Part shown: in pieces, positions 15,003 through 30,845 of the stretch
Numbering within the stretch: position 1 is the stretch's first letter
How the letters are laid out: every line of letters starts with the position of its first letter
From: Candidatus Kuenenia stuttgartensis
Lineage (GTDB): Bacteria > Planctomycetota > Brocadiia > Brocadiales > Brocadiaceae
Length of the DNA: 32,000 nucleotides
Direction: 5' to 3'
NCBI RefSeq assembly: GCF_900232105.1
Contig: NZ_LT934425.1
Span: 3,990,001-4,022,000, forward strand
Program-made: the position numbers and the translations under genes
The notes under the pieces: generated by a model
Told to the model about the DNA's origin: nothing
Databases searched by the model: none
What the model saw: only the letters and a program-made list of their open reading frames with translations

Positions 15003-16386
15003 CATAAGCGCTAACTTGTTTTATTGACAAATTTTATTCATCATGGTATTTTTATGTTAATTATCCCGCTAATCACTCTATAGGAGGATAAAGCCATGAT
15101 GAGAGAAGATTGGGATCTTCTAAGAACTTTCTTCCCAAACGATTGGAAAAGTTTAGCCGTTGATACAAATGCTTTAAAAGGCTTGCGCAAGGATAAATCT
15201 GAAGAAAAGCTTCTTCGAACATTATTAATTCATTTAGGATGTGGCTATTCATTGCGTGAAACAGTAGTTCGAGCCAAGCGTGCTAACTTAGCAGATTTAT
15301 CCGATGTTGCCTTATTAAAGCGATTAAAAAAGAGCAAAGAATGGCTATATAAATTATGTTTATCTTTATTCCGTGAGCGTGGCCTCCAAATTAATAAACG
15401 GAATAATTTTCATCTTCGCTTATTTGATGCAACAACAGTAAAGGAACCTGGGAAAACAGGAAGTCTTTGGCGCATTCATTATAGTATTGAGGTTCCTTCA
15501 TTATCTTGCGATTTCTTTAAACTTACGGGAACTGAAGGAGAAGGCACAGGAGAATCTTTTCGGCAGTTTCCGATGAAAAAAGATGATTATATTATAGCTG
15601 ACAGAGGTTACTGTACTGGCCAAGGAATTCATCATGCAACAAGGAAAGGCGCTTATCTTAGCGTTAGAGTTAATTCGCAATCTCTACGGATATTCGGCGA
15701 AGAAAAGAAACCCTTTCCTTTATTGAAAGAAATCCAATATTTAAAAAGACCCCTTGCTATAAAATCATGGAACGTTTTTATTCCAAACGTTGATAATACT
15801 GAATATGTCAAAGGTCGTCTTTGTATAATACGCAAAACAGAAGAAGCCATTAAAATAGCTCATAAAAAACTTAAAAGACATGCAAGCAAAAAGGGCATTG
15901 AACTAAAACCGGAGACCCTTATTTATGCCAAGTACGTAATAGTATTCACAACGTTTCCTGAAAATCAATTTACCGCTTTTGATATCTTAGAATGGTATCG
16001 AGTTCGATGGCAAATTGAACTGGTCTTTAAAAGATTTAAACAAATAGCACAATTTGGACACTTACCTAAATACGATGATGATAGCTCAAAAGCTTGGCTT
16101 TATGGCAAACTATTCGTTGCTCTTTTGACAGAAAAACTAATAGATTTTGCTACGTCTTTTTCCCCCTGGGGATACTTCATTGTCAAGCAAGAAGACTAAA
16201 AGCAAATGGCGTGAATTTGCTTTTATGCTTAATCAAGTAAAACGGGCTATAGAACCAGCGTTATCATTACAGGAAGTTCTTAAGTGCTGGAATGACATTG
16301 CTTGTTCTTTAGCAGAAAATACAAGAATCCGAAAAACACAGATATCAAAATACTTCGAGCATACCTAAAACAAGTTAGCGCTTATG
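15003..16386 (+). mobile_element. IS4-family insertion sequence (1384 bp) with 21-bp perfect IRs and 11-bp target duplication
   Basis: IR-L is CATAAGCGCTAACTTGTTTTA (15003-15023) and IR-R is its exact complement (16366-16386). The direct repeat GGGCGGAGGGT lies at 14992-15002 and 16387-16397. Confidence 0.9.
15096..16368 (+). pseudogene. IS4-family DDE transposase with split reading frame (15096-16199 and 16147-16368)
   Basis: The IS4 signature Y-x2-R-x3-E-x6-K is present (YRVRWQIELVFKRFK). The frame changes in or near TTTTTCCCCCTGGGG (about 16160-16175). The second frame ends at a TAA inside IR-R, as expected for the genuine C-terminus. Confidence 0.8.
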
Positions 16387-16611: not shown

Positions 16612-18069
16612 TTACCCCTGGTTGACAAGCTCACCCAGTCTAATATGCTTGCGCATTACAGCATCGATATCCTCCATGTATCTCCCGTCCGCAGGGTAAC
16701 ACTGAGTACCATGAATATGCATGTCCAGCCCGTCAAGCTCTTCTGCTTCAGATACCCTGATACCGATGGTATGTTTTAGTCCAAAGAATATGACGAAGCC
16801 CAGTCCACCTGCCCATACTATGGCGGTGGCGAAGGCGATGAGCTGGGCAAGAAACTGCTGGCCGGAACCAACGATCAGCCCACTTACTCCTCCATATGAA
16901 CCGTCGGCAAAAATCCCTACGGCAAGAAGCCCCCACAACCCATTAGCGCCGTGCACAGATACCGCACCAAGGGGATCATCCACTCTAAACTTACGTTCAA
17001 CAAGCCACACCGAGCCGCACATCAACAAACCGCCAACTAACCCTATAATAACGGCAGCCCATGGCGCAATGAACGCACATGGCGCCGATACAGCTACAAA
17101 ACCTCCCAGTGCGCCATTACAAGCCTCCGCTATATCCGCTTTTCTAGATTTCCAGTAGGTATATAATACGACAATGACAGCGCCTGAAATACCGGCAAGG
17201 AGGGTATTGGCAGCAATAATTGAAGACCGTAATTCCGATATTGCGAGGGTGCTGCCAGCATCATAAGCAAGCCACCCAAAGGCTAAAACAACGGTGCCAA
17301 TAAGTACATAGGCAATGTTGTGTCCATGGATATGGTTAGAAGAGCCGTCCTTATTAAATTTTCCGATTCTCGGACCTAGCGCCCATGCACCCATAAAGGC
17401 ACAGATTCCACCAATTGCATGGACTACTCCAGATCCGGCAAAGTCCTTGACTCCCACCCCCAATTTTAACTTAGCAAGCCATCCTTCGCCCCATATCCAG
17501 TGGCCGTAGAATGAATAAGCAAATGTATACACGAGAAGCCCTGCGATTAAAAAGGCGGAAAACTTAATCCTTTCTGCAACAGCGCCGGCAATGATGCTGC
17601 CAATAAAAGTGGCAACAACCGCCATGAAGGTAAAGAGCAGAATGGTCTTTACATCATACGTATCTCCTAAAAGCATAAAGCCGCCATAACCTATAAAGGG
17701 ATTACCTTTATCAAGGCCTGACGCCAAGTGAGAACCGCCGAACATAAATGCAAAACCAAATAGCCAGAAAATAAAGACTCCCGCCGTTGTAGCCATAAAG
17801 CAATGAGCCATGTAGCTAAGCATATTTTTGGAGCGAACAAGCCCGCCAAGCAGCATAAACCCGGCCTGCATAAAGAGAATAAGAAACGCCGCCACCAATA
17901 TCCAAACAAAGTTTCCTGAAGTGCTCAAGCCTTCGAAGCTTTGCGTGAACGTGAATGCGCCACTGGGATCGCCTGCCTGCACACAGTTTGCCCATAGGAA
18001 AAACATAGTAACGCTGCAAAAAAGGACCAAGCCAAAGCGACTCATCTTGATCCTGCACATATTCTGCAT
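16612..18069 (-). CDS. amt: ammonium transporter (Amt family)
   Basis: 485 aa with a signal peptide and multiple TM segments. Twin-His contexts are DFAGSGVVHAIGG and DDPLGAVSVHGANG. The C-terminal GLDMHIHG resembles AmtB GLDVNSHG. AAGGAG lies 7 nt upstream of the ATG. Confidence 0.92.
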   Translation of the reverse strand: MQNMCRIKMSRFGLVLFCSVTMFFLWANCVQAGDPSGAFTFTQSFEGLSTSGNFVWILVAAFLILFMQAGFMLLGGLVRSKNMLSYMAHCFMATTAGVFIFWLFGFAFMFGGSHLASGLDKGNPFIGYGGFMLLGDTYDVKTILLFTFMAVVATFIGSIIAGAVAERIKFSAFLIAGLLVYTFAYSFYGHWIWGEGWLAKLKLGVGVKDFAGSGVVHAIGGICAFMGAWALGPRIGKFNKDGSSNHIHGHNIAYVLIGTVVLAFGWLAYDAGSTLAISELRSSIIAANTLLAGISGAVIVVLYTYWKSRKADIAEACNGALGGFVAVSAPCAFIAPWAAVIIGLVGGLLMCGSVWLVERKFRVDDPLGAVSVHGANGLWGLLAVGIFADGSYGGVSGLIVGSGQQFLAQLIAFATAIVWAGGLGFVIFFGLKHTIGIRVSEAEELDGLDMHIHGTQCYPADGRYMEDIDAVMRKHIRLGELVNQG

Positions 18070-18112
18070 TTTAAATCTCCTTTATATACATAATGCTATA
18101 AATAATTTAGCA

Positions 18113-18213
18113 TATACTCAATCAGACTGAAATCACTGGTTTCTGACATGCGCATTCATTGCCTTCTATACTCAATCAGATTGAAGCCGCTGGCTTCCGT
18201 CTGATTGAGTATA
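18113..18213 (-). promoter_or_regulatory. three copies of a 14-nt element (two direct, one inverted) between the PII gene and amt; strong hairpin with an alternative pairing partner
   Basis: TATACTCAATCAGA at 18113-18126 and 18167-18180, with the exact complement TCTGATTGAGTATA at 18200-18213. The 19-nt spacer contains its own stem, GAAGCC-GCT-GGCTTC. Confidence 0.45.
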
Positions 18214-18324
18214 TATTGTGTAGCATATGCCCGTTTACAAACTTTTCTATCACTAAACGCGTATATTTTATACGTTACTTTTTATTTAATCGTAGAGCGT
18301 TGTTTAAAATCTGACGATGTTTTT

Positions 18325-18771
18325 TTACTTTGGAAAAACTTCGTTCAGGGAAGCACGCTCTTTTTTGAGACTCTCAACAGCCTTCATATCCCCCGATTCT
18401 TTTGGAGATAATTTTACAACCCTTCCGTTAGCGCTAATGGCATTATGACCAGTTTCGCCCGTGCGTATGCGACAGGCTGATTCCACATGAGTCACAAATA
18501 CTTTTCCATCGCCAATAACCCCTGTTTTTGCCTCTTCCATAATTATTTTGATTGCCGTCTCCAATTCTGCTTCCGGGACTACAACCTCGAGTTTTATCTT
18601 TTTGTGTAAATCTACCATATATTCTCTTCCACGCCATACCCGTGTCTTACTGATTTCACTTCCTTGCCCTCTGATTTCAGTAACATGCATTCCCATTATT
18701 CCCGTTTCCTGCAACATAGAACTAACCGCCATAAAACGTTCAGGGCGAATAATTGCCTCTATTTTTTTCAT
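18325..18771 (-). CDS. PII-family nitrogen regulatory protein with Trp at the T-loop Tyr51 position and a ~36-aa C-terminal extension
   Basis: MKKIEAIIRPERF...MHVTEIRGQG...RVWRGREYMVDL...KLEVVV...KTGVIGDGKVFV...RIRTGE is collinear with GlnB/GlnK. It is 148 aa against the usual ~112. Confidence 0.85.
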   Translation of the reverse strand: MKKIEAIIRPERFMAVSSMLQETGIMGMHVTEIRGQGSEISKTRVWRGREYMVDLHKKIKLEVVVPEAELETAIKIIMEEAKTGVIGDGKVFVTHVESACRIRTGETGHNAISANGRVVKLSPKESGDMKAVESLKKERASLNEVFPK

Positions 18772-18810
18772 TTTATTTCCTCCTAATAATATTCCTGTTG
18801 TAGCTAAAGA

Positions 18811-19242
18811 TTAAGGGCAGACGTCCACAATCTTTAAAACCTCACTTTGTCTCGTAAGTGGCGTCCCTTCAGAAAAAACGTGTTCCTGCTTTGGCGTCAA
18901 TGATACCCATCTGCCATCTTCCGTTATTATATCTTTTTTAATTATGCCTGACTTTAACCGCAACGCATATTCGTATTCACAGTTATTTCCATCTTCTTCA
19001 TGTAAGAATCTGCTTATGTTCCGCAATGCATCGTCTACTGCGTTTTCTTCTAAGACAACTTCTATCTTTACATTCTTTATTATATCTACTACGTACTCGT
19101 CATCGCGCCAAAAGACAGACCTGGTTGCTATTTGGTCTTGATCTTTTATATACGTCTTTATTACCGGATGTCCAATTTCTCCGAAATAATTTTCTAATAT
19201 CTGTACGGCACCTGGCTTTATAAATGCGGATATTTTTTTCAT
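18811..19242 (-). CDS. highly diverged PII-like paralogue lacking the nucleotide-binding B-loop
   Basis: It aligns by eye with the neighbouring PII (MKKI.A.I.P; FWRDDEYVVDI vs VWRGREYMVDL; VKIEVVL vs IKLEVVV). HEEDGNNCEYEY replaces TGVIGDGKVFV. It shares the C-terminal motif DGRWVSLTPKQE / NGRVVKLSPKE. Confidence 0.6.
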   Translation of the reverse strand: MKKISAFIKPGAVQILENYFGEIGHPVIKTYIKDQDQIATRSVFWRDDEYVVDIIKNVKIEVVLEENAVDDALRNISRFLHEEDGNNCEYEYALRLKSGIIKKDIITEDGRWVSLTPKQEHVFSEGTPLTRQSEVLKIVDVCP

Positions 19243-19308
19243 TATTCATTCCCACCTATTCTTTAAGAAAGTGTAAAAGACCTAATGGATTAAGTTGTAA
19301 TAACCTAA

Positions 19309-19325
19309 GCGCAACTGCAGTACCA
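19309..19325 (-). promoter_or_regulatory. sigma54-type -24/-12 promoter upstream of the PII-like/PII/amt genes
   Basis: The minus strand reads TGGTAC-TGCAG-TTGCGC. GG and GC are at the exact consensus spacing (TGGCAC-N5-TTGC) with one mismatch. The -12 element is ~70 nt upstream of ATG 19242, and a sigma54 activator gene is adjacent. Confidence 0.55.
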
Positions 19326-19582
19326 ATAGTATAAAAAAATAAAAAAGTCGCTAAGAAGTTTTCTAAGTGGTTTCAAATATAAGATTTATTTGCAGAAGAG
19401 CTGTGCTTCAAAAGCAAATATCAAATATATACTTTTCGGGCAATAACATCTTAAAAAAGGGTAATATTTAATGTGAAAGAGATATAAACCTGTAACACGT
19501 AATTGTTTATAAAAAAATCGGGCATGAATGGCATATTCGGGCGTTTATGCACCAAAAGAATGAGTTTTTACCCTGCCACTAA

Positions 19583-20977
19583 TTAATCCTTGAAGGTATC
19601 CTTGTTTATGTTATATTTCTTCATTTTCCGGTAAAGGGTTTTTGCGTCGATACCGGAAATCCTGGCAGAAGAGTCAATTCGTCCTTTGCATTGTTTTAAA
19701 AGTTTCATTATATACAGGACTTCGCACTCTGATAAGAAGGTTTCCATGTCGATATTGGTAACATGGTCATTAGGGGTATTAACGAATGCTTCTTTCTGTT
19801 GTTTTTGGTGGAGTATTGGCATATCAACCTCGTTAATTATATTGTCTTTTGCCATAATTACTGCCCTCTCTGTCAAGTTCTCGAGTTCCCTGACATTGCC
19901 AGGCCAATGGTATGACATCATGATATTAAGGGCATTTTGAGAGATAGATTTAATATTTTTTTTAAACGCTTTATTATATTTTTCGATAAAGTGCAATACA
20001 AGCAAAGGGATATCTTCTAATCTTTCTTTCAAGGGCGGCAATTGAATGGGAATAACATTTAAACGATAGTATAAATCTTTTCTGAAACCCCCTTCTTCCG
20101 ATAAGTTATTGAGGTCTTTATTGGTGGCGGCAATAACCCTTACGTCAACCTTTATTGTCTTATTTCCGCCAATCCTTTCGAAAGATTTCTCCTGCAATAA
20201 CCTGAGAAGTTTTGTTTGCATAGAAAGAGGCAAGTTCCCCATTTCATCAAAAAAAACCGTACCTTTGTTTGCATGTTCAAACTTGCCTGTCCTCTGTTTT
20301 ACAGCGCCGGTGAAAGCGCCCTCTTCATGTCCAAAAAGTTCTGTTTCCAGCAGCGACTCAGGCAATGCACTGCAATTTATGACGACAAAAGGAGCATCTT
20401 TCCTGCTGCTGTTGTGATGAACAGCGTGCGCTATAAGCTCTTTACCTGTGCCCGTTTCCCCGGTTATCAGTATCGTAGCGTCAGTGTCTGCCACCTGCAT
20501 GATCAGGTCATATATTTGCCGCATTCTGTGCGACCCCCCTATTATATTGCCAAAGCTAAACCTCTCTTCCAGTTCCTTTCGTAATGCCCTGTTTTCTATT
20601 ATCAGATTTTGTTTTTCAAAGGCGCGTTTGATGACCAGTCTCAACTCCTCTGCAGAAACTGGTTTCGTGAGATAATCATAAGCGCCTATCTTTATCGCTT
20701 CCACAGCAGTTCTCACGCTGCCATATGCAGTCATCATAATCAAAAATACTTCCGGATATTCAAGCTTTAATTGTTTTAATAATTCAAACCCATCCATTTT
20801 AGGCATTTTAAGGTCTGCAATAACCAGATCATGCGGCGATTTTCTATAAATACTCATCGCCTCCAAACCATTAGACGCCGTACTGATCTCGTATCCTTCG
20901 CTGTCCAGAACACTTTTAATACTACCGAGGACGTATTCGTCATCCTCCACCACCAGTATCTTTTTTTCCCCAACCAT
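19583..20977 (-). CDS. sigma54-dependent response regulator (NtrC family: REC + AAA+ + Fis-type HTH)
   Basis: REC domain (VVEDDE, DLVIADLKMPKMDG, MMTAY), Walker A GETGTGKE, GAFTGA loop (EEGAFTGA), WPGNVRELEN, and a C-terminal HTH (ISGIDAKTLYRKMKKYNI). Confidence 0.93.
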   Translation of the reverse strand: MVGEKKILVVEDDEYVLGSIKSVLDSEGYEISTASNGLEAMSIYRKSPHDLVIADLKMPKMDGFELLKQLKLEYPEVFLIMMTAYGSVRTAVEAIKIGAYDYLTKPVSAEELRLVIKRAFEKQNLIIENRALRKELEERFSFGNIIGGSHRMRQIYDLIMQVADTDATILITGETGTGKELIAHAVHHNSSRKDAPFVVINCSALPESLLETELFGHEEGAFTGAVKQRTGKFEHANKGTVFFDEMGNLPLSMQTKLLRLLQEKSFERIGGNKTIKVDVRVIAATNKDLNNLSEEGGFRKDLYYRLNVIPIQLPPLKERLEDIPLLVLHFIEKYNKAFKKNIKSISQNALNIMMSYHWPGNVRELENLTERAVIMAKDNIINEVDMPILHQKQQKEAFVNTPNDHVTNIDMETFLSECEVLYIMKLLKQCKGRIDSSARISGIDAKTLYRKMKKYNINKDTFKD

Positions 20978-21132
20978 TGGTTAATAATCTCGCTCAAAAT
21001 TAACAAAGAGGCTGTTTTTAGCCGTTTTTCGCAAATAAAAGACCTATTTCCGCCGCTATTTAAAAACAATATTTAATACGTGATAAATACAACCTATTGC
21101 AGTGCAATATGTTATACCGTTGAGGTGTTTGT

Positions 21133-21147
21133 TGGCACACCTATTGC
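21133..21147 (+). promoter_or_regulatory. consensus sigma54 -24/-12 promoter upstream of the 122-aa unknown gene
   Basis: TGGCAC-ACCTA-TTGC is a perfect match to TGGCAC-N5-TTGC, 57 nt upstream of ATG 21204 and divergent from the sigma54 activator gene. Confidence 0.65.
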
Positions 21148-21203
21148 CCTATGTTGTAGTAGAACTATTAGAATTCATTTTAAATATTTACAAGGAGTTT
21201 ACT

Positions 21204-21572
21204 ATGAAAAACATTAAAAACGCCGGTTTTGAACAAAGCATTTATTCTGAACCAGAGGTAATAATAGATAAAGTTGTTGACAATAAGAGATACCGGTTTT
21301 GCAGGTTTCCCGCCAACGAGAATCTCTATAAGGAAATAAGCAGCATTGCCAGGCGCTGGAGAGACGGAGAAATATCTCAAACAGATGCCTCCGGGTTGCT
21401 GGAGATTGCTTCACTTCCCTACGAAAGATGGATTTTTGATATGATTGCCGACCTTGCCGAGGAGACGAAACACCTTGAATATATTGCGGATGACAATGAC
21501 TATAAGGGTGTAAAGGCGATTGCCTTCTTACAACATGGCAATGAGAGATCATATAATATCCAATATAAATAA
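21204..21572 (+). CDS. hypothetical 122-aa protein, probable sigma54-dependent gene
   Basis: ATG 21204 with AAGGAG 7 nt upstream; the track ORF from 21102 overlaps the promoter and is not credible. No TM segment, signal peptide or recognisable family. Confidence 0.6.
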   Translation: MKNIKNAGFEQSIYSEPEVIIDKVVDNKRYRFCRFPANENLYKEISSIARRWRDGEISQTDASGLLEIASLPYERWIFDMIADLAEETKHLEYIADDNDYKGVKAIAFLQHGNERSYNIQYK

Positions 21573-21601
21573 AGCCCTTGCATACTGAATCATAGCGGAA
21601 A

Positions 21602-24600
21602 CTATGCATCAGTTTTTAAAATCGGCAGTAGTATCTGAAAAGTGGTTCCCTCATTAAGGGTGCTTTTGATGCCGATCTTTCCGGCGTGTTCCGTTATAAT
21701 ATTGTAACATATCCATAAACCCAACCCTGTGCCGGTCCCTTTTTTCGTGCTAAAAAAGGGCTCAAAAATATTTGGCAAATCTTTTTCCCTTATTCCGCAT
21801 CCGTTATCGGCAAACTCAATCTGTAACTGATTGTTTTTTGCTTGTGCAGTTATATTAATAGTTCCGCCGTTTGGCATTGCGTCAAGAGAATTGAGTATAA
21901 GGTTTGTAAACACCTGTTCTAATTGGTTGGAATGGCATCTTATGCAGGGAATATTTTTGTCAATCGTTTGTTTTACCGTTATTTTTGACTGAGAAAGTTT
22001 CTTCTGTAATAAATTCACGACATTTTGTATGTGATAATTAATATTATGATCGCCTTTTTCTTCCATTATATGCAGGTTAGAGTCTAACAAACTCCTTACA
22101 ATTCCCGCTATCCTGTAAATGCCGTCCATGACGAGTTCCACATATTTCCTTTTCTCATCCTTCTCCCCCATTCTCTCCAGCAACAATTGCAGGTAATTAA
22201 TAATGCCTTCCAGCGGGTTATTGATCTCATGCGCAACGCTTGAGACGACCCTGCCTGTTGAAGCCAGCTTTTCCGCCTCTAACAGTTGCGATTCCAGACT
22301 TTTTTCCGCCGTAATATCCCTGTAAACGGACCTGATGGCGGTAATTCTGCCATTATCATCACAAATATGATTATCGTTCAGGCTGACGTCTATAATGCAT
22401 CCGTCTTTTTTTATAAGTTGTAGTTCTGGTCCCTTTACAAGCTGTCCGCTCAAACGTTTGGGTAATAATTTTTTCATTACTTCCCTGTTTTTTTTCGTTT
22501 GAAAATCGAAGATATGCCTTCCTATAAGTTCCTCTTTTTTATATCCTAAAATCTCTGCGCCTGTTTTATTGCAATTGATTATAATCCCGTTTTCATCGTT
22601 TGTTATATAGATATCCGGAGCATTATCATAAAGGTCTTTGTATCTTTTCTCAGACTCCCTTGTTTTTTTAAATAATCTGGCATTTTCCATGGCGATGGCC
22701 AACTGTATGGCAATCTGTTTCAGTAGTGTAAAATGTTTTTCAGAAAAGCTGTTTTTTTTTGAACTTCCAAAGTTAATCGTTCCGATAATATTGCCTTTGT
22801 ATTCAAGCGGGAAACTGAGCCGCGACATTATACCTTCTTTGAGCAACAGACGATCTGGCTCAAAAGCGCTTTTTGAAGTATCTCTCACAATAAACGGCCT
22901 GCCGGTAAAAGTTACCTGCTCTAACAAGCTCCCTTCTTTTCTGAGCCAGTCATTTTCGCTAATTGCCGTGTAATCATACGATTTGTCCATGGCGGCAACC
23001 TCAACATTTTGTTTTTTTTCATCAATCAAGGCAATGCTGACCCTGTCAAACTCCATGACGCGCTTCAGCTCATTACTTATTGACCTAAATAGCATATCCG
23101 ACATAAGATCAGAAGAAACAATCTTATTAATATTGTATATAATTTCCTTCTGATGTTCCATTTCCCACATTTTGGTAATATCCTGAACCAGCTCAAGCAC
23201 ATGGGTAATATTTCCCTGAACGTCTTTGATTGGTGACCCAATAAAGTGGTAATATTTCTTCTCGTTGTCCCTGCCAATTACCAGCTTTTTTATTTCTTCT
23301 CTCTTACCGCTCATAAATACGCGTTTTGCAGTGCAGTCCTCCGTGGAAGCATTGCCGCAGCCAAAAATTTTATTACACGCATCATTTTTAAAACCATATA
23401 CCATTCCAAACTGTTCCACGAAGGGTTTGTTGCCCCACGTAATCTTCATTTCTCTATCGATGAGGCATAAGTATGCGCCTATTCCGGTCACTATCATATC
23501 GAGTTTCTTTTCTTCTCTCTCCAGTTCCGCACGTGCTTTTTCAAGGTCGTTCAGCATGTACAATGTTGCTTCTCTAAAGTCTGACAATTCATTTATAAGT
23601 TTTTTTGTATGCCTCATATCCCTGGCAACGCCGACAACATTTATCACCTCTCCATCGCTGTTACGCATTATACGCCCGCAAAAATTCACAGGGATATCTT
23701 CTCCTTTATGCGTATGATACATAATATCGTAATCCTTTAATACATCTTCCTTCCAAAGATCACTCCAGCTCCGGTTCGCAATGGGGTTGTCTTTGTCTCT
23801 CAGGATCATATCTATATTATTGCCAATTAACTCCTTTTCTTCATACCCTAACAGATCGAGCATTGATTTATTTACGGTTTTTATCCTGCCATGTTGGTCT
23901 ACCACAACCAACGTATCGATCATGCTTTCAATTAAATTTTCCACATAAGCCTTTGACACAGTAGTCTTCTGCATATCTTCTGTCATTTTGTTTATAGAGG
24001 TAGCCAGCATTCCAATTTCGCCCCCTGAGGAAAGATGTATCCTCTTGTCAAGATCACCGTCGGCAATGGCGGCCATTACACGTGATATTTTTGAAATGGG
24101 GCTTGTAATCAACCTTTTTGTCAATAAGTATGTAATAAAAACAATTGCGGCAACAGAGACCAGTGCAATACAGATAAGTATTATTATGTTTGATTTCACG
24201 CTTGCATGAATAAGTCTTAATGGCGCTATGACGCTTATCGCTCCCCACAAATTGCCCTCCTTATATGCCTCATTCTCATGACCGGGAATGGTTGTTTTTC
24301 CTGCATGCCCTCCGTGGCATCCGAGACAGGACTTCTTCATATAGAGTGGGGCAATATAACGAAATATTTTTTCATTATTTATGCCAAACGACTCACCACA
24401 ATACGCATCATGTGGTTTCTGTTCTTCCATGTTTTTCAAGACGGCTTCTTCCAAATCATCCGGGTGGTTATCTGTATTTATGTGTTTCAGTGCTATCAGC
24501 CGAACCGTGTATGGTCTGTTTTCGTTGATGGTGTTGGAAAATTCCGCGCAGATTTCTGAAGGGTGCAAATGTATAAAAACCGTATTGCTGCCAGCGCGGC

Positions 24601-24796
24601 CAGTATTGAAACTATTCTGAGCCTCTGCTAAACGACTGTGGATCATTTCTATTTGCTTAACAAGAATGTTTGCATGTTTTTTTATTTCGTCTTCCAGCAA
24701 ATAGTCTTGCCTTTTAATGATCAGTGTAAAGCTTACCCCCAGTACCAGTGGTACAAAAAGGCTGATTGATAAGATATATTTAGCGCCCAGTTTCAT
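21602..24796 (-). CDS. multi-sensor histidine kinase: periplasmic CXXCH (Tll0287/DUF3365-like) domain, TM, HAMP, PAS-like repeats, GAF, HisKA, HATPase
   Basis: 1064 aa with an N-terminal TM. The periplasmic segment carries RLIALKHIN..PDD.E...YRYIAPLYMKKSCLGCHG...GNLWGAISV (CLGCH at 24314-24328). A second TM, HAMP (GDLDKRI...EIG.L..SINKM), GAF (RVSIALIDEKK...IGTINFGS), H-box SSVAHEINNPLEGI and the ATPase motifs DNGCGI and GTGLGL follow. Confidence 0.9.
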   Translation of the reverse strand: MKLGAKYILSISLFVPLVLGVSFTLIIKRQDYLLEDEIKKHANILVKQIEMIHSRLAEAQNSFNTGRAGSNTVFIHLHPSEICAEFSNTINENRPYTVRLIALKHINTDNHPDDLEEAVLKNMEEQKPHDAYCGESFGINNEKIFRYIAPLYMKKSCLGCHGGHAGKTTIPGHENEAYKEGNLWGAISVIAPLRLIHASVKSNIIILICIALVSVAAIVFITYLLTKRLITSPISKISRVMAAIADGDLDKRIHLSSGGEIGMLATSINKMTEDMQKTTVSKAYVENLIESMIDTLVVVDQHGRIKTVNKSMLDLLGYEEKELIGNNIDMILRDKDNPIANRSWSDLWKEDVLKDYDIMYHTHKGEDIPVNFCGRIMRNSDGEVINVVGVARDMRHTKKLINELSDFREATLYMLNDLEKARAELEREEKKLDMIVTGIGAYLCLIDREMKITWGNKPFVEQFGMVYGFKNDACNKIFGCGNASTEDCTAKRVFMSGKREEIKKLVIGRDNEKKYYHFIGSPIKDVQGNITHVLELVQDITKMWEMEHQKEIIYNINKIVSSDLMSDMLFRSISNELKRVMEFDRVSIALIDEKKQNVEVAAMDKSYDYTAISENDWLRKEGSLLEQVTFTGRPFIVRDTSKSAFEPDRLLLKEGIMSRLSFPLEYKGNIIGTINFGSSKKNSFSEKHFTLLKQIAIQLAIAMENARLFKKTRESEKRYKDLYDNAPDIYITNDENGIIINCNKTGAEILGYKKEELIGRHIFDFQTKKNREVMKKLLPKRLSGQLVKGPELQLIKKDGCIIDVSLNDNHICDDNGRITAIRSVYRDITAEKSLESQLLEAEKLASTGRVVSSVAHEINNPLEGIINYLQLLLERMGEKDEKRKYVELVMDGIYRIAGIVRSLLDSNLHIMEEKGDHNINYHIQNVVNLLQKKLSQSKITVKQTIDKNIPCIRCHSNQLEQVFTNLILNSLDAMPNGGTINITAQAKNNQLQIEFADNGCGIREKDLPNIFEPFFSTKKGTGTGLGLWICYNIITEHAGKIGIKSTLNEGTTFQILLPILKTDA

Positions 24797-24805
24797 AGAT
24801 TATAT

Positions 24806-26425
24806 TTATTTTGGTTTTTTTAAAGCGTAAAGGTCTTCTTCCATTTTTTTCATCTTTAATTCCCTGCCGACAGCTACTTTTGCAAAGTTCTCCAATTGTT
24901 CGGCTTTTTTCTTGAAATCATCCCGCGATTTTTCCAATTCCGAGGTTCTTTTCTTCACATCTTCTTCAAGATTTCTCTTTATGTCCTCCAGTTCCCTTGT
25001 TCTGTCTTTTATTTTGTCCTGTAATGCCGCATTCAAGTCCTGAACTTTTGTGATTTTAACAAAGTCAAGCCATGATGTGACGTCTGCATATTCACTGATA
25101 TTTAATCCCTTAACCTCTTCTTCGGTGCTGATTCTAATGCCTACCAGTTTCTTCATACACCAGAAAAATAAAAGTCCCAATGAAAAAGCCCAGGCAAATG
25201 CCACAATAATTCCCAGACATTGCACGCCAACCTGTAAAAGGCGGCTGAAGTTTGTCATTGAAAATGCAGACACGGGAGTAAACAAGCTAACGGCCAGGGT
25301 GCCCCAGACGCCGCAAAATCCGTGGACGGGAACCGCCCCCACCGGGTCGTCCACTCTTAATATCTTTTCGATAAAATCCTTAGCCAATATTGCGATGATG
25401 CCTGCGCATAATCCAACTATACATGCATATACGGGGCTCACCCTGCTGCAACCTGCGCCAATGGCAACGATTCCCCCCATGATTCCTAAAAGTATTTCTG
25501 CGGCGTCCAATGTTTTGTTTTTCAGTTTTCTGAAAACTGCAGCAGCAACACCCGCTACCGACCCAGACAAGGTTGTATTGATAATTACCAACCCGATGCT
25601 GGTATCAGCCTGCAAAAGAGCCCCTCCGTTAAAACCAAACCAGCCAAACCACAAAAAAAATGTACCTATTGTGGCAAGTGGTAGATTGTGTCCGTACATC
25701 CTGTTCACGGTGCCATCAGGATTAAACTTTCCGGTCCTCGGCCCCAGCACAATGGCGCCCGACAAAGCAATCCATCCGCTTACAGAATGGACTACCGTAG
25801 AACCAGCAAAATCTATAAATCCGAGCCTTTCAAGCCATCCATACTGCTGGGTATGCAATAAATGTCCCCATGCCCAATGGCCAAAGACGGGATAAATCAG
25901 GCAAACAACAACAATGGTCGTACAAATATGAGTTAACAGTTTTGCTCTTTCGGCATAAGCGCCAGATGTAATAGTGGCTGCGGTACCTGCAAATACCAGT
26001 TGGATAAAAACAAAGGCATATCCCAGGGAGGTTAGATGAGTATCAATACCATATAACAGAAAATTACTTATGCCGATATAGCCGTTATAGCTCACGCCAA
26101 ACATAATCCCAAACCCTACGATAAAATATGTTATGGAACTTATAAGAAAATTCAATATATTTTTTATGGAAACGCTTATGGCATTTTTTGCCTGTACTGA
26201 GCCAGCTTCATATGCCGTAAAACCCACCTGCATGAAAAAAACCATGCTGGCAGCGACAATAATCCAGATAAAATCAAGTTTTTTCTGGATTAATTGCAGA
26301 GATGTTTCCTCATTTTCAGCATGAACATTATAATGCGGGTAAAAAACTAATGCGGTCGCTATAATGCAGGCAAAGATAATTATTATTTGCCTTTTGTGCC
26401 TGTTATCGCTTTGTATGTTACTCAT
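24806..26425 (-). CDS. Amt-family protein with a ~92-aa C-terminal coiled-coil extension (candidate ammonium sensor/transceptor)
   Basis: 539 aa. The Amt core has twin-His contexts DFAGSTVVHSVSG and DDPVGAVPVHGFCG. The conserved cytoplasmic GLDxxxHG is changed to GLNISEYA. The tail QDLNAALQDKIKDRTRELEDIKRNLEEDVKKRTSELEKSRDDFKKKAEQLENFAKVAVGRELKMKKMEEDLYALKK is heptad-like and highly charged. The stop lies 9 nt before the kinase ATG. Confidence 0.88.
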   Translation of the reverse strand: MSNIQSDNRHKRQIIIIFACIIATALVFYPHYNVHAENEETSLQLIQKKLDFIWIIVAASMVFFMQVGFTAYEAGSVQAKNAISVSIKNILNFLISSITYFIVGFGIMFGVSYNGYIGISNFLLYGIDTHLTSLGYAFVFIQLVFAGTAATITSGAYAERAKLLTHICTTIVVVCLIYPVFGHWAWGHLLHTQQYGWLERLGFIDFAGSTVVHSVSGWIALSGAIVLGPRTGKFNPDGTVNRMYGHNLPLATIGTFFLWFGWFGFNGGALLQADTSIGLVIINTTLSGSVAGVAAAVFRKLKNKTLDAAEILLGIMGGIVAIGAGCSRVSPVYACIVGLCAGIIAILAKDFIEKILRVDDPVGAVPVHGFCGVWGTLAVSLFTPVSAFSMTNFSRLLQVGVQCLGIIVAFAWAFSLGLLFFWCMKKLVGIRISTEEEVKGLNISEYADVTSWLDFVKITKVQDLNAALQDKIKDRTRELEDIKRNLEEDVKKRTSELEKSRDDFKKKAEQLENFAKVAVGRELKMKKMEEDLYALKKPK

Positions 26426-28169: not shown

Positions 28170-30845
28170 TCAGTTCTTGTGCTCAAACGATTTTGTTAAA
28201 TGTTCAAAGCTCATATTCACCATTACCGCATTATGTGGAATTAAAACATATTTCCAGGGTTTCCCTCCATTGGAAATAGTAAAATCTGTAGCAACCTTAC
28301 AATACTCTAAGGCTGCCTGGGCTTTTCCCTGAACATCTTCCGATTCAATATCTGCCTCTTTCTTCGTTTCTATAAGATAAATAGCATCTTTTGTTTCCAC
28401 GACAAAATCAGGGTTGTATTGCCTTGAATTGTGCTTCCAGTATAGGTGGAATTGATTAGATGCAGGCCTTAGCCACTTAAGAACTACTTTGTCCTGCTCT
28501 AAAATGACTGCAAAATCTTTTTCTGTCTTGGAATCAAATTTATACAGATTGTGGCATGCTTTTTTGAAACCACTAAATACCTTATTAGGAATGGCATTGG
28601 TTGGAGTGATTGTCTCGGTAAAATGATGAATGCTGTCTTTCGTGTATTTTGAAAAATTATGTTCTTCAATCCTTGTAAAAGGCTTTACCATTGGCTTTTC
28701 ATAGCTTGGCGCTTCACAGTAAAAATGTTGCTTCATCTGGGAATAAATATAACTTCCAATCTCTTTTTTGTGAAATTGCACAACATTCATCAGTTTATCG
28801 TCGTCAAGATATGCCCTGAATTTCTCAATTGCCTGACCAGTTAATCTAAAAAGCAATTCAGTCTGTTCGTCATAATCTATTTCAGGGTAATTCATGAGTT
28901 CATTAACAATGATATTTTCCGGACCGTCATGTATGCCCCTGCCCTTCCCGCTTATAATATCAACACTGTTTTCCTGTTCACGGAGCTTTTTTACTAAAAT
29001 TTCTTCCGACACCGGTTGGTAATTGAGACTCCTGGTATCAAGGTCAAAATCCTTAAAGCCCGACCTTACTTCATTGCTTTGCTGAATGGTGATTCTTGGA
29101 ATTTCTATTATATTCTGTAAAAAATCATGTACCACCGCTTCATAGGCATCCTCAACTTCTTTTATCATCTCTGCAGTAAATAAATTTTTCTGAGGAGTAC
29201 TGTAAATCTTTTGTTTTATTCTTTCTACAGCTATTTGTTTGATTTCTGACCTTGTCAATTCATTGACATTGGTTACGGTATTGTTTAGTCCCGGAAGTGT
29301 TGAAAGAATCGTCTTTCTGACTTCCAAGTTAATCTGGGCTTTTTGTCTCTGTTCAGGCTCAACAATAAGCCCAATCTTCCTTTGCTCTTCATCAAATTTT
29401 TGTTCAACGTTTGAAGTGGAGGTAATTACCTCTTTTTGTTGACTGATTTCCTGTGGATCAATTTCAATAATATTTTGCCTTTTAATGATAGAATCGGGTT
29501 GATTGGCTGCGTCAATTATCTCCTGAAATTTATCATGGGCTACAATCGTAAGTTTATCCACTTTATCAACACCCGTTCTTTTTCCATACGGCAAGCGTAA
29601 CCCCCTGCCAATAGTCTGTTCCCTCAAAGTCATAGACGTAGCCGTTCTTAAGGGAATAATCGTATAGAGATTAGTTACGTCCCACCCTTCTTTCAGCATA
29701 TTGACATGGATAACAATTTCAATTTTATTTTCTGGCTTTTCCAAAGAAATCAGTTGTGCAATATTTTCTTCTTTTTCTTCCCCTGATTGGTTCGAGTGGA
29801 TTTCCATTACCTTATCGGCATAATAACCTTCAAAAAATGCGTTTGAAATGATCAACTGCTTTAATTTGCCGGCATGGGTTGTATCCTGTGCAACAACCAG
29901 CACAAAAGGCTTTACCGCTTTTACTCTATTATCCCGCGCATAGATATCCAAAGCCACTTTCGTGTCTTCATGGATACGAATGCCGTCTTCCAGTTTTATC
30001 CTGTCCAGTTCATCAGCGGAGTATTGTGAAGGATTAAAATCTTTACGGGTAGCCACTGCCGGTTCCTTTACAAAACCGTCCTGAATAGCCTTCGCTAATG
30101 AATATTCAAACACGACATTTTTAAACTTAATAGGCCCTCCGCTTCGTTCTATTTGGGGTGTCGCTGTAAGTTCCAATCCTAAAATAGGGTTTAATTCATT
30201 AATAACCTGCATGCCTCTGGCTGCCCGGTAGTGATGTGATTCGTCCATCAGCAAAACCAGGCCATCGAGGTTTGAAAGGTAATTGAAATAAGAATCGCCT
30301 AAATATTCTGAAAGCCTTTTTACGCGTGGAAGCTTGCCGCCCTTCGTTTCGGCATTTATCTTGGAGATGTTAAAAATGTTGATATGAATATCAGTTATGA
30401 ACATTTTTGTCTGGCGAATTTCATTATAATTATCGCCGGTAATAATACGGGGTTGGTTATGAACAAACTCCCCAATGCCCTGAAATACGTATTTTGGGCA
30501 ATTCGGATTGGAAAAGTCCTCAATGAGCTTATTATAAATGGTAATATTCGGCGCTAGTACGAAATAGTGCTTTATGCCCTTTGAAAGATATAAATAAGCG
30601 ACAAATGCCCCCATTAAGCGCGTCTTTCCAACACCAGTGGCTAAAGCGAAACAGAGAGAAGGGAAGTTTCTTTCAAAGTCAGCACAAGCAGGATAGGCGC
30701 TTTTGACTATCTCCAGTGCCGCGAATAAATCGCCATTTTTCTGAAGGGTCAATTTATCCGTCAGCTCTGCCAGTATATTCAGGCTGTCTGCCTGCGGCAA
30801 GCGAAGGCTTAAGCGATTCTTGATGGTATTTGCTATGCGATTCAT
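28170..30845 (-). CDS. res: type III restriction enzyme Res subunit (SF2 helicase + C-terminal PD-(D/E)xK nuclease)
   Basis: 891 aa. Motif I LATGVGKTRL, motif II LLMDESHHY, motif VI QTIGRGLRLPYG, and a C-terminal nuclease-like NPDFVV...IYLIETKKE. Confidence 0.85.
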   Translation of the reverse strand: MNRIANTIKNRLSLRLPQADSLNILAELTDKLTLQKNGDLFAALEIVKSAYPACADFERNFPSLCFALATGVGKTRLMGAFVAYLYLSKGIKHYFVLAPNITIYNKLIEDFSNPNCPKYVFQGIGEFVHNQPRIITGDNYNEIRQTKMFITDIHINIFNISKINAETKGGKLPRVKRLSEYLGDSYFNYLSNLDGLVLLMDESHHYRAARGMQVINELNPILGLELTATPQIERSGGPIKFKNVVFEYSLAKAIQDGFVKEPAVATRKDFNPSQYSADELDRIKLEDGIRIHEDTKVALDIYARDNRVKAVKPFVLVVAQDTTHAGKLKQLIISNAFFEGYYADKVMEIHSNQSGEEKEENIAQLISLEKPENKIEIVIHVNMLKEGWDVTNLYTIIPLRTATSMTLREQTIGRGLRLPYGKRTGVDKVDKLTIVAHDKFQEIIDAANQPDSIIKRQNIIEIDPQEISQQKEVITSTSNVEQKFDEEQRKIGLIVEPEQRQKAQINLEVRKTILSTLPGLNNTVTNVNELTRSEIKQIAVERIKQKIYSTPQKNLFTAEMIKEVEDAYEAVVHDFLQNIIEIPRITIQQSNEVRSGFKDFDLDTRSLNYQPVSEEILVKKLREQENSVDIISGKGRGIHDGPENIIVNELMNYPEIDYDEQTELLFRLTGQAIEKFRAYLDDDKLMNVVQFHKKEIGSYIYSQMKQHFYCEAPSYEKPMVKPFTRIEEHNFSKYTKDSIHHFTETITPTNAIPNKVFSGFKKACHNLYKFDSKTEKDFAVILEQDKVVLKWLRPASNQFHLYWKHNSRQYNPDFVVETKDAIYLIETKKEADIESEDVQGKAQAALEYCKVATDFTISNGGKPWKYVLIPHNAVMVNMSFEHLTKSFEHKN

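Follow-up and report, generated by a model that had tools for sequence, protein, structure and literature searches.

A conserved seven-gene nitrogen-status signalling island of anammox bacteria encodes a receptor-clade Amt protein next to a separate sensor kinase

The subject of this analysis is a cluster of seven genes in a stretch of 32,000 nucleotides (nt) from Candidatus Kuenenia stuttgartiensis (contig NZ_LT934425.1, positions 3,990,001 to 4,022,000), hereafter the window, within which all coordinates are counted. An earlier note, made from the letters alone, had placed seven open reading frames between 16612 and 26425 and read them as a self-contained ammonium-signalling island. All seven are present, and the seven encoded proteins are exact matches to proteins of Candidatus Kuenenia stuttgartiensis. 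On the minus strand the cluster begins with amtb_1, encoding an Amt protein with a coiled-coil tail, and continues with a sensor histidine kinase of 1064 amino acids (aa), an NtrC-family regulator, the PII-type genes nrp_4 and nrp_3 and finally amt_4, which encodes an ordinary-type Amt; a gene for a 122-aa protein lies on the plus strand between kinase and regulator, convergent with the former and divergent from the latter (Table 1). The island is a real, conserved seven-gene nitrogen-status signalling module that is specific to anammox bacteria.

Loci for comparison were gathered from the contigs of amtb_1 orthologues (78–86% identical) and by a search with the 122-aa protein of one genome per species, and they came from Scalindua, Loosdrechtia, Jettenia, Brocadia and unclassified Brocadiales. 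In every sufficiently long locus the order and orientation are kept, i.e., tailed Amt, kinase, convergent 122-aa gene, regulator, PII-like protein, PII protein and Amt, and the genes outside this unit are wholly different between loci. That the cluster is self-contained is therefore borne out: tailed Amt, kinase, activator and PII pair co-occur as a unit across anammox genera with unrelated flanks. The 122-aa and nrp_4 families were found only in anammox bacteria, the former having three representatives among 1.84 billion clustered proteins and the latter a similarly narrow distribution. In strain RU1 both island PII genes are given as 'Not identified' (Table 1 of Smeulders, 2020; PMC7438415). 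The genes that flank the island in the window, encoding a DDE transposase, endonuclease V, MsrB-MsrA and a type III restriction helicase, are unrelated to it. The transposase gene (367 aa; PF01609, E 2.5e-15) lies at 15096–16199 (+), 412 base pairs (bp) past the amt_4 end of the island, and the type III restriction-enzyme res-subunit/helicase (891 aa, with a C-terminal endonuclease-like region) is encoded at 28170–30845 (−).

Table 1. Genes, protein domains and candidate regulatory elements of the island (positions in the window)
Feature	Position	Strand	Basis or remark
amt_4 (KSMBR1_3716; UniProt A0A2C9CJU7), ordinary-type Amt, 485 aa	16612-18069	-	PF00909
nrp_3 (KSMBR1_3717), PII protein, 148 aa	18325-18771	-	Pfam P-II
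nrp_4 (KSMBR1_3718), PII-like, 143 aa	18811-19242	-	remote PII relative
sigma-54-type element TGGTACTGCAGTTGC (TGGTAC-N5-TTGC)	19311-19325	-	exact match, 68 nt before nrp_4 ATG
Hairpin and T-run, likely intrinsic terminator of the regulator gene	19333-19370	-	between regulator gene and PII promoter
PII-operon upstream block TGCCCGAA, candidate enhancer	19432-19444	-	alignment of 10 orthologous regions
PII-operon upstream block GGTGCAT..GCCCGAA..CATGCCCGA, candidate enhancer	19507-19553	-	alignment of 10 orthologous regions
NtrC-family regulator, 464 aa (KSMBR1_3719 from gene order)	19583-20977	-	Pfam
Palindrome GGCTG-N4-CAGCC, candidate enhancer/regulator site	21010-21023	+	about 85-125 bp 5' of promoter
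Degenerate second palindrome copy, candidate enhancer/regulator site	21040-21055	+	about 85-125 bp 5' of promoter
sigma-54-type element TGGCACACCTATTGC (TGGCAC-N5-TTGC)	21133-21147	+	exact match, 56 nt before 122-aa ATG
122-aa gene (KSMBR1_3720 by position; annotated 'hypothetical protein')	21204-21572	+	open reading frame
Sensor histidine kinase, 1064 aa (KSMBR1_3721 from gene order)	21602-24796	-	Pfam, NCBIfam
HATPase of kinase	21620-21931	-	HATPase_c, Pfam
HisKA of kinase	22082-22255	-	H-box AHEINNPL at residue 856
HAMP of kinase	23972-24118	-	Pfam
Haem-c Cache / Tll0287-like domain (PF11845) of kinase	24221-24697	-	residues 34-192, 85 bits, cut-off 24.1
CLGCH of kinase	24314-24328	-	residues 157-161
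amtb_1 (KSMBR1_3722; UniProt A0A2C9CKL7), tailed Amt, 539 aa	24806-26425	-	PF00909
Conserved coiled-coil tail of amtb_1, about 90 aa	24809-25078	-	heptad pattern, conservation
Amt domain of amtb_1	25079-26269	-	PF00909, 352.8 bits

The PF00909 score of amtb_1 (Table 1) together with 370.1 bits against TIGR00836 (cut-off 343.3) makes it a member of the Amt/Mep/Rh family. Among solved structures it is far nearer to Ks-Amt5 (6EU6, E 2.8e-141) and Sd-Amt1 (E 5e-92) than to the transporters, with E values of 1e-52 for Af-Amt1 and about 1e-36 for E. coli AmtB. Judged by sequence, amtb_1 therefore belongs in the ammonium-receptor clade rather than among the ordinary transporters. The AmR signature proposed for such proteins reads Q-X6-E-X15-N-X2-D-[F/T]-X54-60-T-X2-[S/T] (Pfluger, 2024; PMC11152129), and six of its seven residues (Q, E, N, F, T, and S) as well as the 'switch' lysine are found in amtb_1. 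The N1-site ligands Q, E, N, T, and S are kept and the N2-site Asp (D50) is missing, its place being taken by N. This position is variable: it is N, G or D in amtb_1 orthologues, V in Amt-kinase fusions of Brocadia and Jettenia, and V or I among relatives.

No fused transducer follows the Amt domain, only a coiled coil of about 90 aa and a stop codon. The tail, a coiled coil in the earlier note, is charged (49% of its residues) and heptad-patterned, with hydrophobic residues mainly at the a and d positions, and it gave no domain match in Pfam. Its first 40 or so residues are homologous to the linker of Ks-Amt5 (hhalign probability 99%), a homology that is common to tailed Amt, Amt-kinase and Amt-PAS-kinase architectures; after the linker the protein continues as a charged, heptad-patterned helix for about 50 more residues and then ends. 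Among orthologues identity is 81–92% in the tail, 81–88% in the Amt domain and 35–59% in the N-terminal leader. The tail is thus conserved as strongly as the Amt domain, which argues that it is under selection and not a decaying remnant. A reading of the distal tail (..VAVGRELKMK..) as a dimerisation and histidine phosphotransfer (DHp) helix with a lost His was discarded, as hhalign supports only the first 40 or so residues and gives low confidence for the rest. The label '-HK' attached to amtb_1 by Smeulders (2020) was likewise set aside, the kinase being encoded by a separate gene with no fused domain in amtb_1, and a cluster member of 548 aa that might have passed for an in-frame Amt-kinase fusion is a frameshift variant.

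From the TAA stop of amtb_1 to the ATG of the kinase gene there are exactly 9 nt, the distance that had been claimed, and in orthologues the gap is 3–7 nt in two cases and 139 nt in a third. In every locus covering both, amtb_1 lies directly 5' of the kinase gene, and the two are separate genes in all orthologues. The nearest relatives of amtb_1 outside its orthologue group are Amt-kinase fusions of the Ks-Amt5 type (about 679 aa) and Amt-PAS-kinase fusions, and the first PAS domain of the latter aligns best to the first PAS domain of the island kinase (E 7e-30). The Amt-PAS-kinase fusions were nevertheless rejected as a fused form of the island kinase, because the only one of them whose kinase core is readable, on contig L015, is nearer in that core to Ks-Amt5 and has other downstream regulators. 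On this related Brocadiales-type contig (L015:2-4243, +) the Amt-PAS-PAS-HisKA-HATPase protein is called as three open reading frames, probably through frameshifts. Next come a single-domain receiver and a protein that joins a receiver to an ATPase, so this sister Amt receptor has another downstream pathway.

The kinase has the order transmembrane segment (TM), haem-c Cache (Tll0287-like) domain, TM, HAMP, PAS, PAS, GAF, PAS, HisKA, and HATPase. Every one of the elements that had been proposed for it, the CXXCH domain, HAMP, PAS-like repeats, GAF, HisKA and HATPase, was recovered with Pfam, and across the island the same holds for all domains named in the earlier note (Pfam and NCBIfam), with a reservation on the PII assignment of the 143-aa protein. 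Hydrophobic segments at residues 3–29 and 193–231 flank the Tll0287-like domain, which has the PF11845 match, the conserved CXXCH and the extracytoplasmic position of the sCache_heme/Tll0287-like family. C-x-x-C-H is invariant in the eight kinase orthologues that keep the domain. The best NCBIfam match of the kinase is AtoS (308 bits, under its cut-off), the NtrB equivalog model NF008293 gives 105.9 against a cut-off of 240, and the protein has two membrane segments. The proposal that the input end departs from a cytoplasmic, PII-controlled NtrB is thus upheld on three counts: a membrane-bound kinase, an extracytoplasmic haem-c domain and an NtrB score below cut-off. The H-box AHEINNPL is one that we take to be of the NtrB/AtoS type.

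A recent preprint reclassified the Tll0287-like family as haem-c Cache domains, and reports that members joined to TM-HAMP modules behave as nitric oxide (NO) sensors and not as oxygen sensors (Deshpande, 2026; PMC12889525). By analogy the haem-c Cache domain of the island kinase probably senses NO or redox. Since its family is tied to NO sensing, the island is probably not an ammonium-only circuit. The haem domain was lost by distinct in-frame deletions in a Brocadia metagenome-assembled genome (MAG; L011:3830-6604, −) and a Scalindua MAG (L012:10397-13099, −), leaving kinases of 924 and 900 aa in which both TMs, HAMP and the remaining kinase are kept, as are the tailed Amt and its adjacency. 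Loss in two lineages while the Amt-kinase pair stays points to the haem domain as an accessory input and to the pairing as the constant element. In Planctomycetia bacterium H5_AMX3 the kinase gene (L010:10467-13634, −) is broken over three reading frames, and may be a pseudogene or reflect assembly errors; the tailed Amt of the same locus can be aligned only to residue 507.

The regulator has Response_reg, Sigma54_activat, AAA_lid_14 and HTH_8 above threshold, with D55, a Walker A motif GETGTGK at 173, GAFTGA at 220 and a Fis-type helix-turn-helix. By domains and motifs it is an NtrC-family sigma-54 enhancer-binding response regulator, i.e., the NtrC-type activator that had been announced for this position. 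Its best NCBIfam match is AtoC (NF008469, 499.6 against a cut-off of 714), and it scores 433.2 against 558.6 for NtrC (TIGR01818). Kinase and regulator hence both match best to the cognate pair AtoS/AtoC, each below the equivalog cut-off. A hairpin with a T-run separates the regulator gene from the PII promoter; it is likely an intrinsic terminator of the regulator gene and fits with a separate transcription unit. In orthologues this hairpin folds with −15 to −17 kcal/mol (z −4 to −6), and its stems differ in sequence between genera yet stay complementary; the Kuenenia copy (−1.8 kcal/mol) is decayed, and read-through from the regulator gene may therefore vary between species. Generic sigma-70 and terminator scans gave counts not above those in shuffled sequence.

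Two PII-family genes had been claimed downstream of the regulator. For nrp_3 this is correct: the 148-aa protein scores 87.6 bits against PF00543, its best solved relative is GlnK1 of M. thermolithotrophicus (E 7e-30, residues 1–112), and it keeps the T-loop residues Y51 and R47, K58, the B-loop and the RxR of the C-terminus within RIRTGE (numbered after E. coli GlnB). For the 143-aa nrp_4 it needs qualification, as Pfam P-II gives 17.7 bits (cut-off 25). Residues 1–78 match solved PII proteins (E 9e-6) and WR..EY of the T-loop is kept, GxGRQ and the B-loop TGxxGDGKIF are lost and K58 is replaced; on these grounds nrp_4 is best regarded as a remote, degenerate PII relative outside the PII family as defined by the PF00543 cut-off and loops. 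An AlphaFold2 model of nrp_4 was too poor for use (mean predicted local distance difference test, pLDDT, 38.0). Both proteins are thus atypical, as had been suspected, nrp_4 through the loss of its nucleotide-binding loops and nrp_3 through a Q39 to E change and a C-terminal extension of about 36 aa. The motif GR(V/W)VxLxPK in the extension is common to both, which shows that they arose by duplication of an already extended PII protein. It is reasonable to suppose that nrp_3 and nrp_4 may form a hetero-oligomer by which amt_4 would be gated. In Brocadia-, Jettenia- and Loosdrechtia-type loci nrp_3 has a longer orthologue, where an extra conserved C-terminal segment ..Y(S/L)(K/E)LQKD..NNYxQP is found (L003:17698-18186, 162 aa, and also L008, L009, and L010). 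The Amt behind the PII genes had been called canonical, and amt_4 is indeed of the ordinary type: it scores 355.3 bits against PF00909 and 370.5, above cut-off, against TIGR00836, lies equally far from every solved Amt (E about 1e-51 to 1e-56) and carries no receptor signature, the first Gln alone being kept.

The 122-aa protein gave no match in Pfam or NCBIfam, its orthologues are 70–93% identical, and its AlphaFold2 model was too poor for use (mean pLDDT 51.7). A ribosome-binding site AAGGAG at 21192 lies 6 nt 5' of the ATG at 21204, which is the start conserved in orthologues. A longer reading from a GTG at 21102 (21102–21572, +; 156 aa) would overlap the sigma-54 element; database variants of the protein are 142–146 aa.

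The two sigma-54-type elements that had been pointed out, a perfect TGGCAC-N5-TTGC before the 122-aa gene and TGGTAC-N5-TTGC about 70 nt before the PII-type genes, were both found as exact matches (Table 1), and they are the only two exact matches to TGGYAC-N5-TTGC in the window. A looser sigma-54-like pattern gave 6 matches where 5.1 are expected, which is not above chance, and the significance of the elements therefore rests on conservation. One TGG-N8-TTGC element is present in each of the 10 regions 5' of the PII-like gene, 81–87 nt from the start, and in each of the 11 regions 5' of the 122-aa gene, 74–94 nt from the start; in both alignments GG and TTGC never change, in contrast to the bases of the spacer. 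Both elements thus have the GG at −24 and GC at −12 of a predicted sigma-54 promoter, at fixed spacing, 5' of a gene and conserved in orthologues. The sigma-54 gene itself, rpoN, is not among the genes of the window. No literature on sigma-54 or NtrC in anammox bacteria was found. Further upstream, conserved blocks of the PII operon (19432–19553) lie about 110–230 bp 5' of the −24 element. The 122-aa gene is instead preceded by a palindrome with the consensus GGCTGATTTCAGCC, present in one copy in Brocadia/Jettenia-type loci and two in Kuenenia/Scalindua-type loci (11 regions aligned). A candidate enhancer motif shared by both promoter regions was sought and none was found, the conserved blocks being different. 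In MAG B27T3L11 a second Amt-PII-Amt cluster adjoins the island (L006:712-4545, +; with about 50% identity to amt_4 and nrp_3) and looks like the amt_1-3 cluster of Kuenenia that is induced by ammonium limitation; 5' of it no convincing sigma-54 element was seen, and the palindrome of the 122-aa gene is absent.

Expression of the island genes can be read from the RNA-seq supplement of Smeulders (2020; PMC7438415), which compares an ammonium-limited with a nitrite-limited culture in reads per kilobase per million (RPKM). The values under ammonium and nitrite limitation, respectively, are 64 and 621 for nrp_3, 33 and 304 for nrp_4, 64 and 509 for amt_4, and 395.9 and 35.1 for KSMBR1_3720, the 122-aa gene (PMC7438415). 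The first three genes are thus up 8–10 times in ammonium excess (nitrite limitation) and the 122-aa gene is up 11 times in ammonium limitation. Genome-wide 66 genes were responsive (PMC7438415), and four of these sit behind the two predicted sigma-54 promoters. Sequencing reads connect nrp_3, nrp_4, and amt_4 as a single operon, and amtb_1 is expressed at a low, constitutive level (Smeulders, 2020; PMC7438415). The nirS cluster went up together with nrp3/4-amt_4, and a classical-looking amt/nrp cluster of Kuenenia was induced in ammonium limitation (PMC7438415). These data strongly support the view that the island outputs track ammonium/nitrite status.

The scheme favoured here, which is held with slightly more confidence than doubt, leads from a split Amt receptor through the kinase and the NtrC-family regulator to nrp4-nrp3-amt_4. 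The amtb_1 protein would act as an ammonium receptor of the same type as Ks-Amt5 and Sd-Amt1, transporting poorly or not at all; lacking a fused transducer, it would modulate the separate, adjacent membrane kinase through its cytoplasmic coiled-coil tail. The kinase would also integrate NO or redox through the haem-c Cache domain and cytoplasmic signals through PAS and GAF, and would phosphorylate the neighbouring regulator. In Ks-Amt5 ammonium raises kinase phosphorylation (PMC11152129), and by analogy the targets of the regulator would go up, like the PII operon, when there is an excess of ammonium. Ammonium would then turn the kinase on, and with ammonium in excess the regulator would activate nrp4-nrp3-amt_4 from its sigma-54 promoter. 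The 122-aa gene, with its own sigma-54 promoter and a different palindrome, would be on under the opposite condition, most likely via a second activator or a second system state. We infer the wiring between the components from adjacency, family type and conservation, and the coupling of Amt to kinase, the phosphotransfer, the promoter bound by the regulator and the ligands are put forward in the same conditional sense.

Several observations weigh against this scheme. The receptor signature of amtb_1 is incomplete, with N at D50 (G, D, V, or I in relatives), the distal 55 or so residues of its tail have no homology to a known signalling module that hhalign or Pfam could detect, and the argument from fused relatives for a coupling of amtb_1 to the kinase is valid at the family level only. 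The kinase is amply equipped with sensors of its own (haem Cache, three PAS and GAF), its gene is parted from that of the regulator by a gene on the opposite strand, the two are not co-transcribed, and both in-frame deletions of the haem domain come from metagenome-assembled genomes. The RNA-seq contrast confounds ammonium with nitrite/NO, and the two predicted sigma-54 promoters respond reciprocally and have no upstream motif in common. Reciprocal responses imply that at least one promoter is not simply activated by the phosphorylated neighbouring regulator. As one phosphorylation-activated enhancer-binding protein cannot alone turn on both, a second activator or a further control layer is needed, and the idea of the earlier note that the one adjacent activator drives both outputs has to be given up in view of the opposite expression directions and the different conserved motifs.

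It is conceivable, but unlikely, that the kinase senses NO or redox through its haem-c Cache, PAS and GAF domains and that amtb_1 is merely co-expressed with it and does not signal through it. The amtb_1 protein would then be a stand-alone receptor, a slow transporter or a fusion remnant, and the island would report nitrite/NO status. In agreement with this, Tll0287-like domains on TM-HAMP modules show NO-sensor properties (PMC12889525) and CXXCH is conserved in eight orthologues, the RNA-seq contrast alters nitrite as much as ammonium with nirS co-rising with nrp3/4-amt_4, and amtb_1 itself is short of the N2-site Asp and ends in a tail without a recognised domain. On the other hand the haem domain was lost in two lineages that kept the amtb_1-kinase pair and an intact tail, the constraint on the tail equals that on the Amt domain, unlike in a decaying remnant, amtb_1 is always directly 5' of the kinase gene in loci covering both, and its closest relatives are Amts physically fused to kinases.

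A rather unlikely, though possible, division of labour concerns the two promoters and is compatible with the rest of the scheme: the regulator, active at low ammonium or high nitrite/NO, may drive the 122-aa gene through the palindrome, and the nrp4-nrp3-amt_4 promoter may be served by an enhancer-binding protein encoded elsewhere. A 14-bp palindrome such as GGCTGATTTCAGCC suits a dimeric Fis-type helix-turn-helix and lies in the divergent region between the regulator and 122-aa genes, 85–125 bp from the promoter; the 122-aa gene is strongly regulated (11 times), and the PII-operon blocks resemble direct repeats, unlike the palindrome. The analogy with Ks-Amt5, where ammonium raises phosphorylation, predicts instead that the targets go up in ammonium excess like the PII operon, whose blocks are at least equally conserved and also at typical enhancer distances. 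An ordinary NtrBC-GlnK-AmtB nitrogen-limitation system with extra domains would likewise bring together, in a single cluster, the genes for an NtrC-family regulator, PII and Amt as well as sigma-54 promoters. This textbook reading is highly improbable and was rejected on family scores and expression direction: kinase (105.9 against 240 for NtrB) and regulator (433 against 558.6 for NtrC) fall below cut-off, the kinase is anchored in the membrane and carries an extracytoplasmic haem domain, and the PII-amt operon is up in ammonium excess, the opposite of glnK-amtB.

Returning to the split-receptor scheme, it is tempting to speculate, although this is quite unlikely, that the module weighs ammonium, read via amtb_1 in trans, against NO, read via the haem-c Cache domain, these being the two substrates of hydrazine synthase, with reciprocal outputs that report the limiting one. 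In anammox bacteria the maturation of c-type haem has been associated with the anammoxosome, and the amtb_1-kinase pair could therefore sit in the anammoxosome membrane, where it would monitor the lumen rather than the outside.

The closest known system is Ks-Amt5 (kuste3690/KSMBR1_3866) of the same organism, described by Pfluger (2018; PMC5764959) as the sole kinase-extended Amt among seven in Kuenenia. It is of the same Amt subclade as amtb_1, with 49% identity overall, and shares the post-Amt linker EYxDVxSWLDFxxIxxxQDxN...RTxEL, the N1-site ligands and the twin-His region. It differs in that DHp and catalytic domains are fused to it in one chain of 679 aa, whereas amtb_1 ends after its coiled coil and the island kinase has a gene, a membrane anchor and sensor domains of its own; it also has Asp at D50. 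The available part of the 2018 text reports no regulator or outputs for Ks-Amt5, whereas candidates for both adjoin amtb_1 (PMC5764959). Sd-Amt1 of Shewanella denitrificans, an Amt-HAMP-diguanylate cyclase (PMC11152129), is the second-best solved relative of amtb_1 and has the switch lysine and the signature Q, E, N, F, T, and S in common with it, but its fused cyclase makes cyclic di-GMP with no two-component phosphorelay, and the signature Asp is present (PMC11152129). Because a fused transducer is absent and one signature residue is short, the amtb_1 module should be described as working like an Amt receptor without being filed in the AmR class.

The in-trans logic itself is familiar from UhpC-UhpB-UhpA, DctA/DcuB-DcuS and BceAB-BceS, where a membrane protein of a transport family supplies the ligand signal to a separate membrane kinase, in some cases one almost without an outer loop, like the L011 and L012 deletion variants. 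To our knowledge none of these co-sensors uses an Amt, and none combines a co-sensor with a haem-c domain on the kinase. The arrangement of NtrB/NtrC with glnK-amtB is similar in that an NtrC-family sigma-54 activator, PII and Amt are encoded together with a sigma-54 promoter before the PII-amt operon, but the island departs from it in having a membrane-bound kinase other than NtrB, an operon that is induced when ammonium is in excess, and a pair of PII paralogues which both carry C-terminal extensions and of which one is degenerate. NifI1 and NifI2 are paired, adjacent PII paralogues that may form a hetero-oligomer, and nrp_3 and nrp_4 are likewise adjacent paralogues, which differ from the NifI pair in lying beside amt and not nif, in the loss of nucleotide-binding loops from one member and in the GR(V/W)VxLxPK extension of both. 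With the sCache_heme/Tll0287-like sensors (PMC12889525) the kinase shares PF11845 above threshold, CXXCH and the TM-domain-TM-HAMP 'signalling' arrangement; what sets it apart is that two lineages can dispense with the domain and that its partner is an Amt receptor. The main text of that preprint has no anammox example, the words 'anammox' and 'Planctomycet' both being absent (PMC12889525).

The genes and part of their expression are already known. Smeulders (2020; PMC7438415) named amtb_1 ('-HK'), nrp_3/nrp_4, and amt_4 and gave the operon expression, but did not describe the circuit; in the main text KSMBR1_3719, KSMBR1_3721, 'sigma', and 'two-component' are all absent, and the 122-aa gene appears only in a supplementary table. 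Amt-based receptors were defined structurally in 2018 (PMC5764959) and 2024 (PMC11152129), and in the available parts of these reports their place in a network is open, with no downstream regulator or targets given. The island is a new, split variant of these known receptors. Within 10 kb, and across anammox genera, it brings together an Amt of the receptor clade, a kinase and an activator with a pair of conserved promoters and outputs that respond to ammonium/nitrite, so that what an Amt receptor controls, and by which route, become directly testable there.

Anammox bacteria are important in global nitrogen loss and in the treatment of wastewater. The island suggests that Amt receptors can act in trans on a separate kinase, and if this is true it would be the first split Amt receptor. 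It further suggests that an unusual PII pair controls an Amt whose induction, in ammonium excess, goes against the textbook direction, and that anammox bacteria may integrate ammonium with NO.

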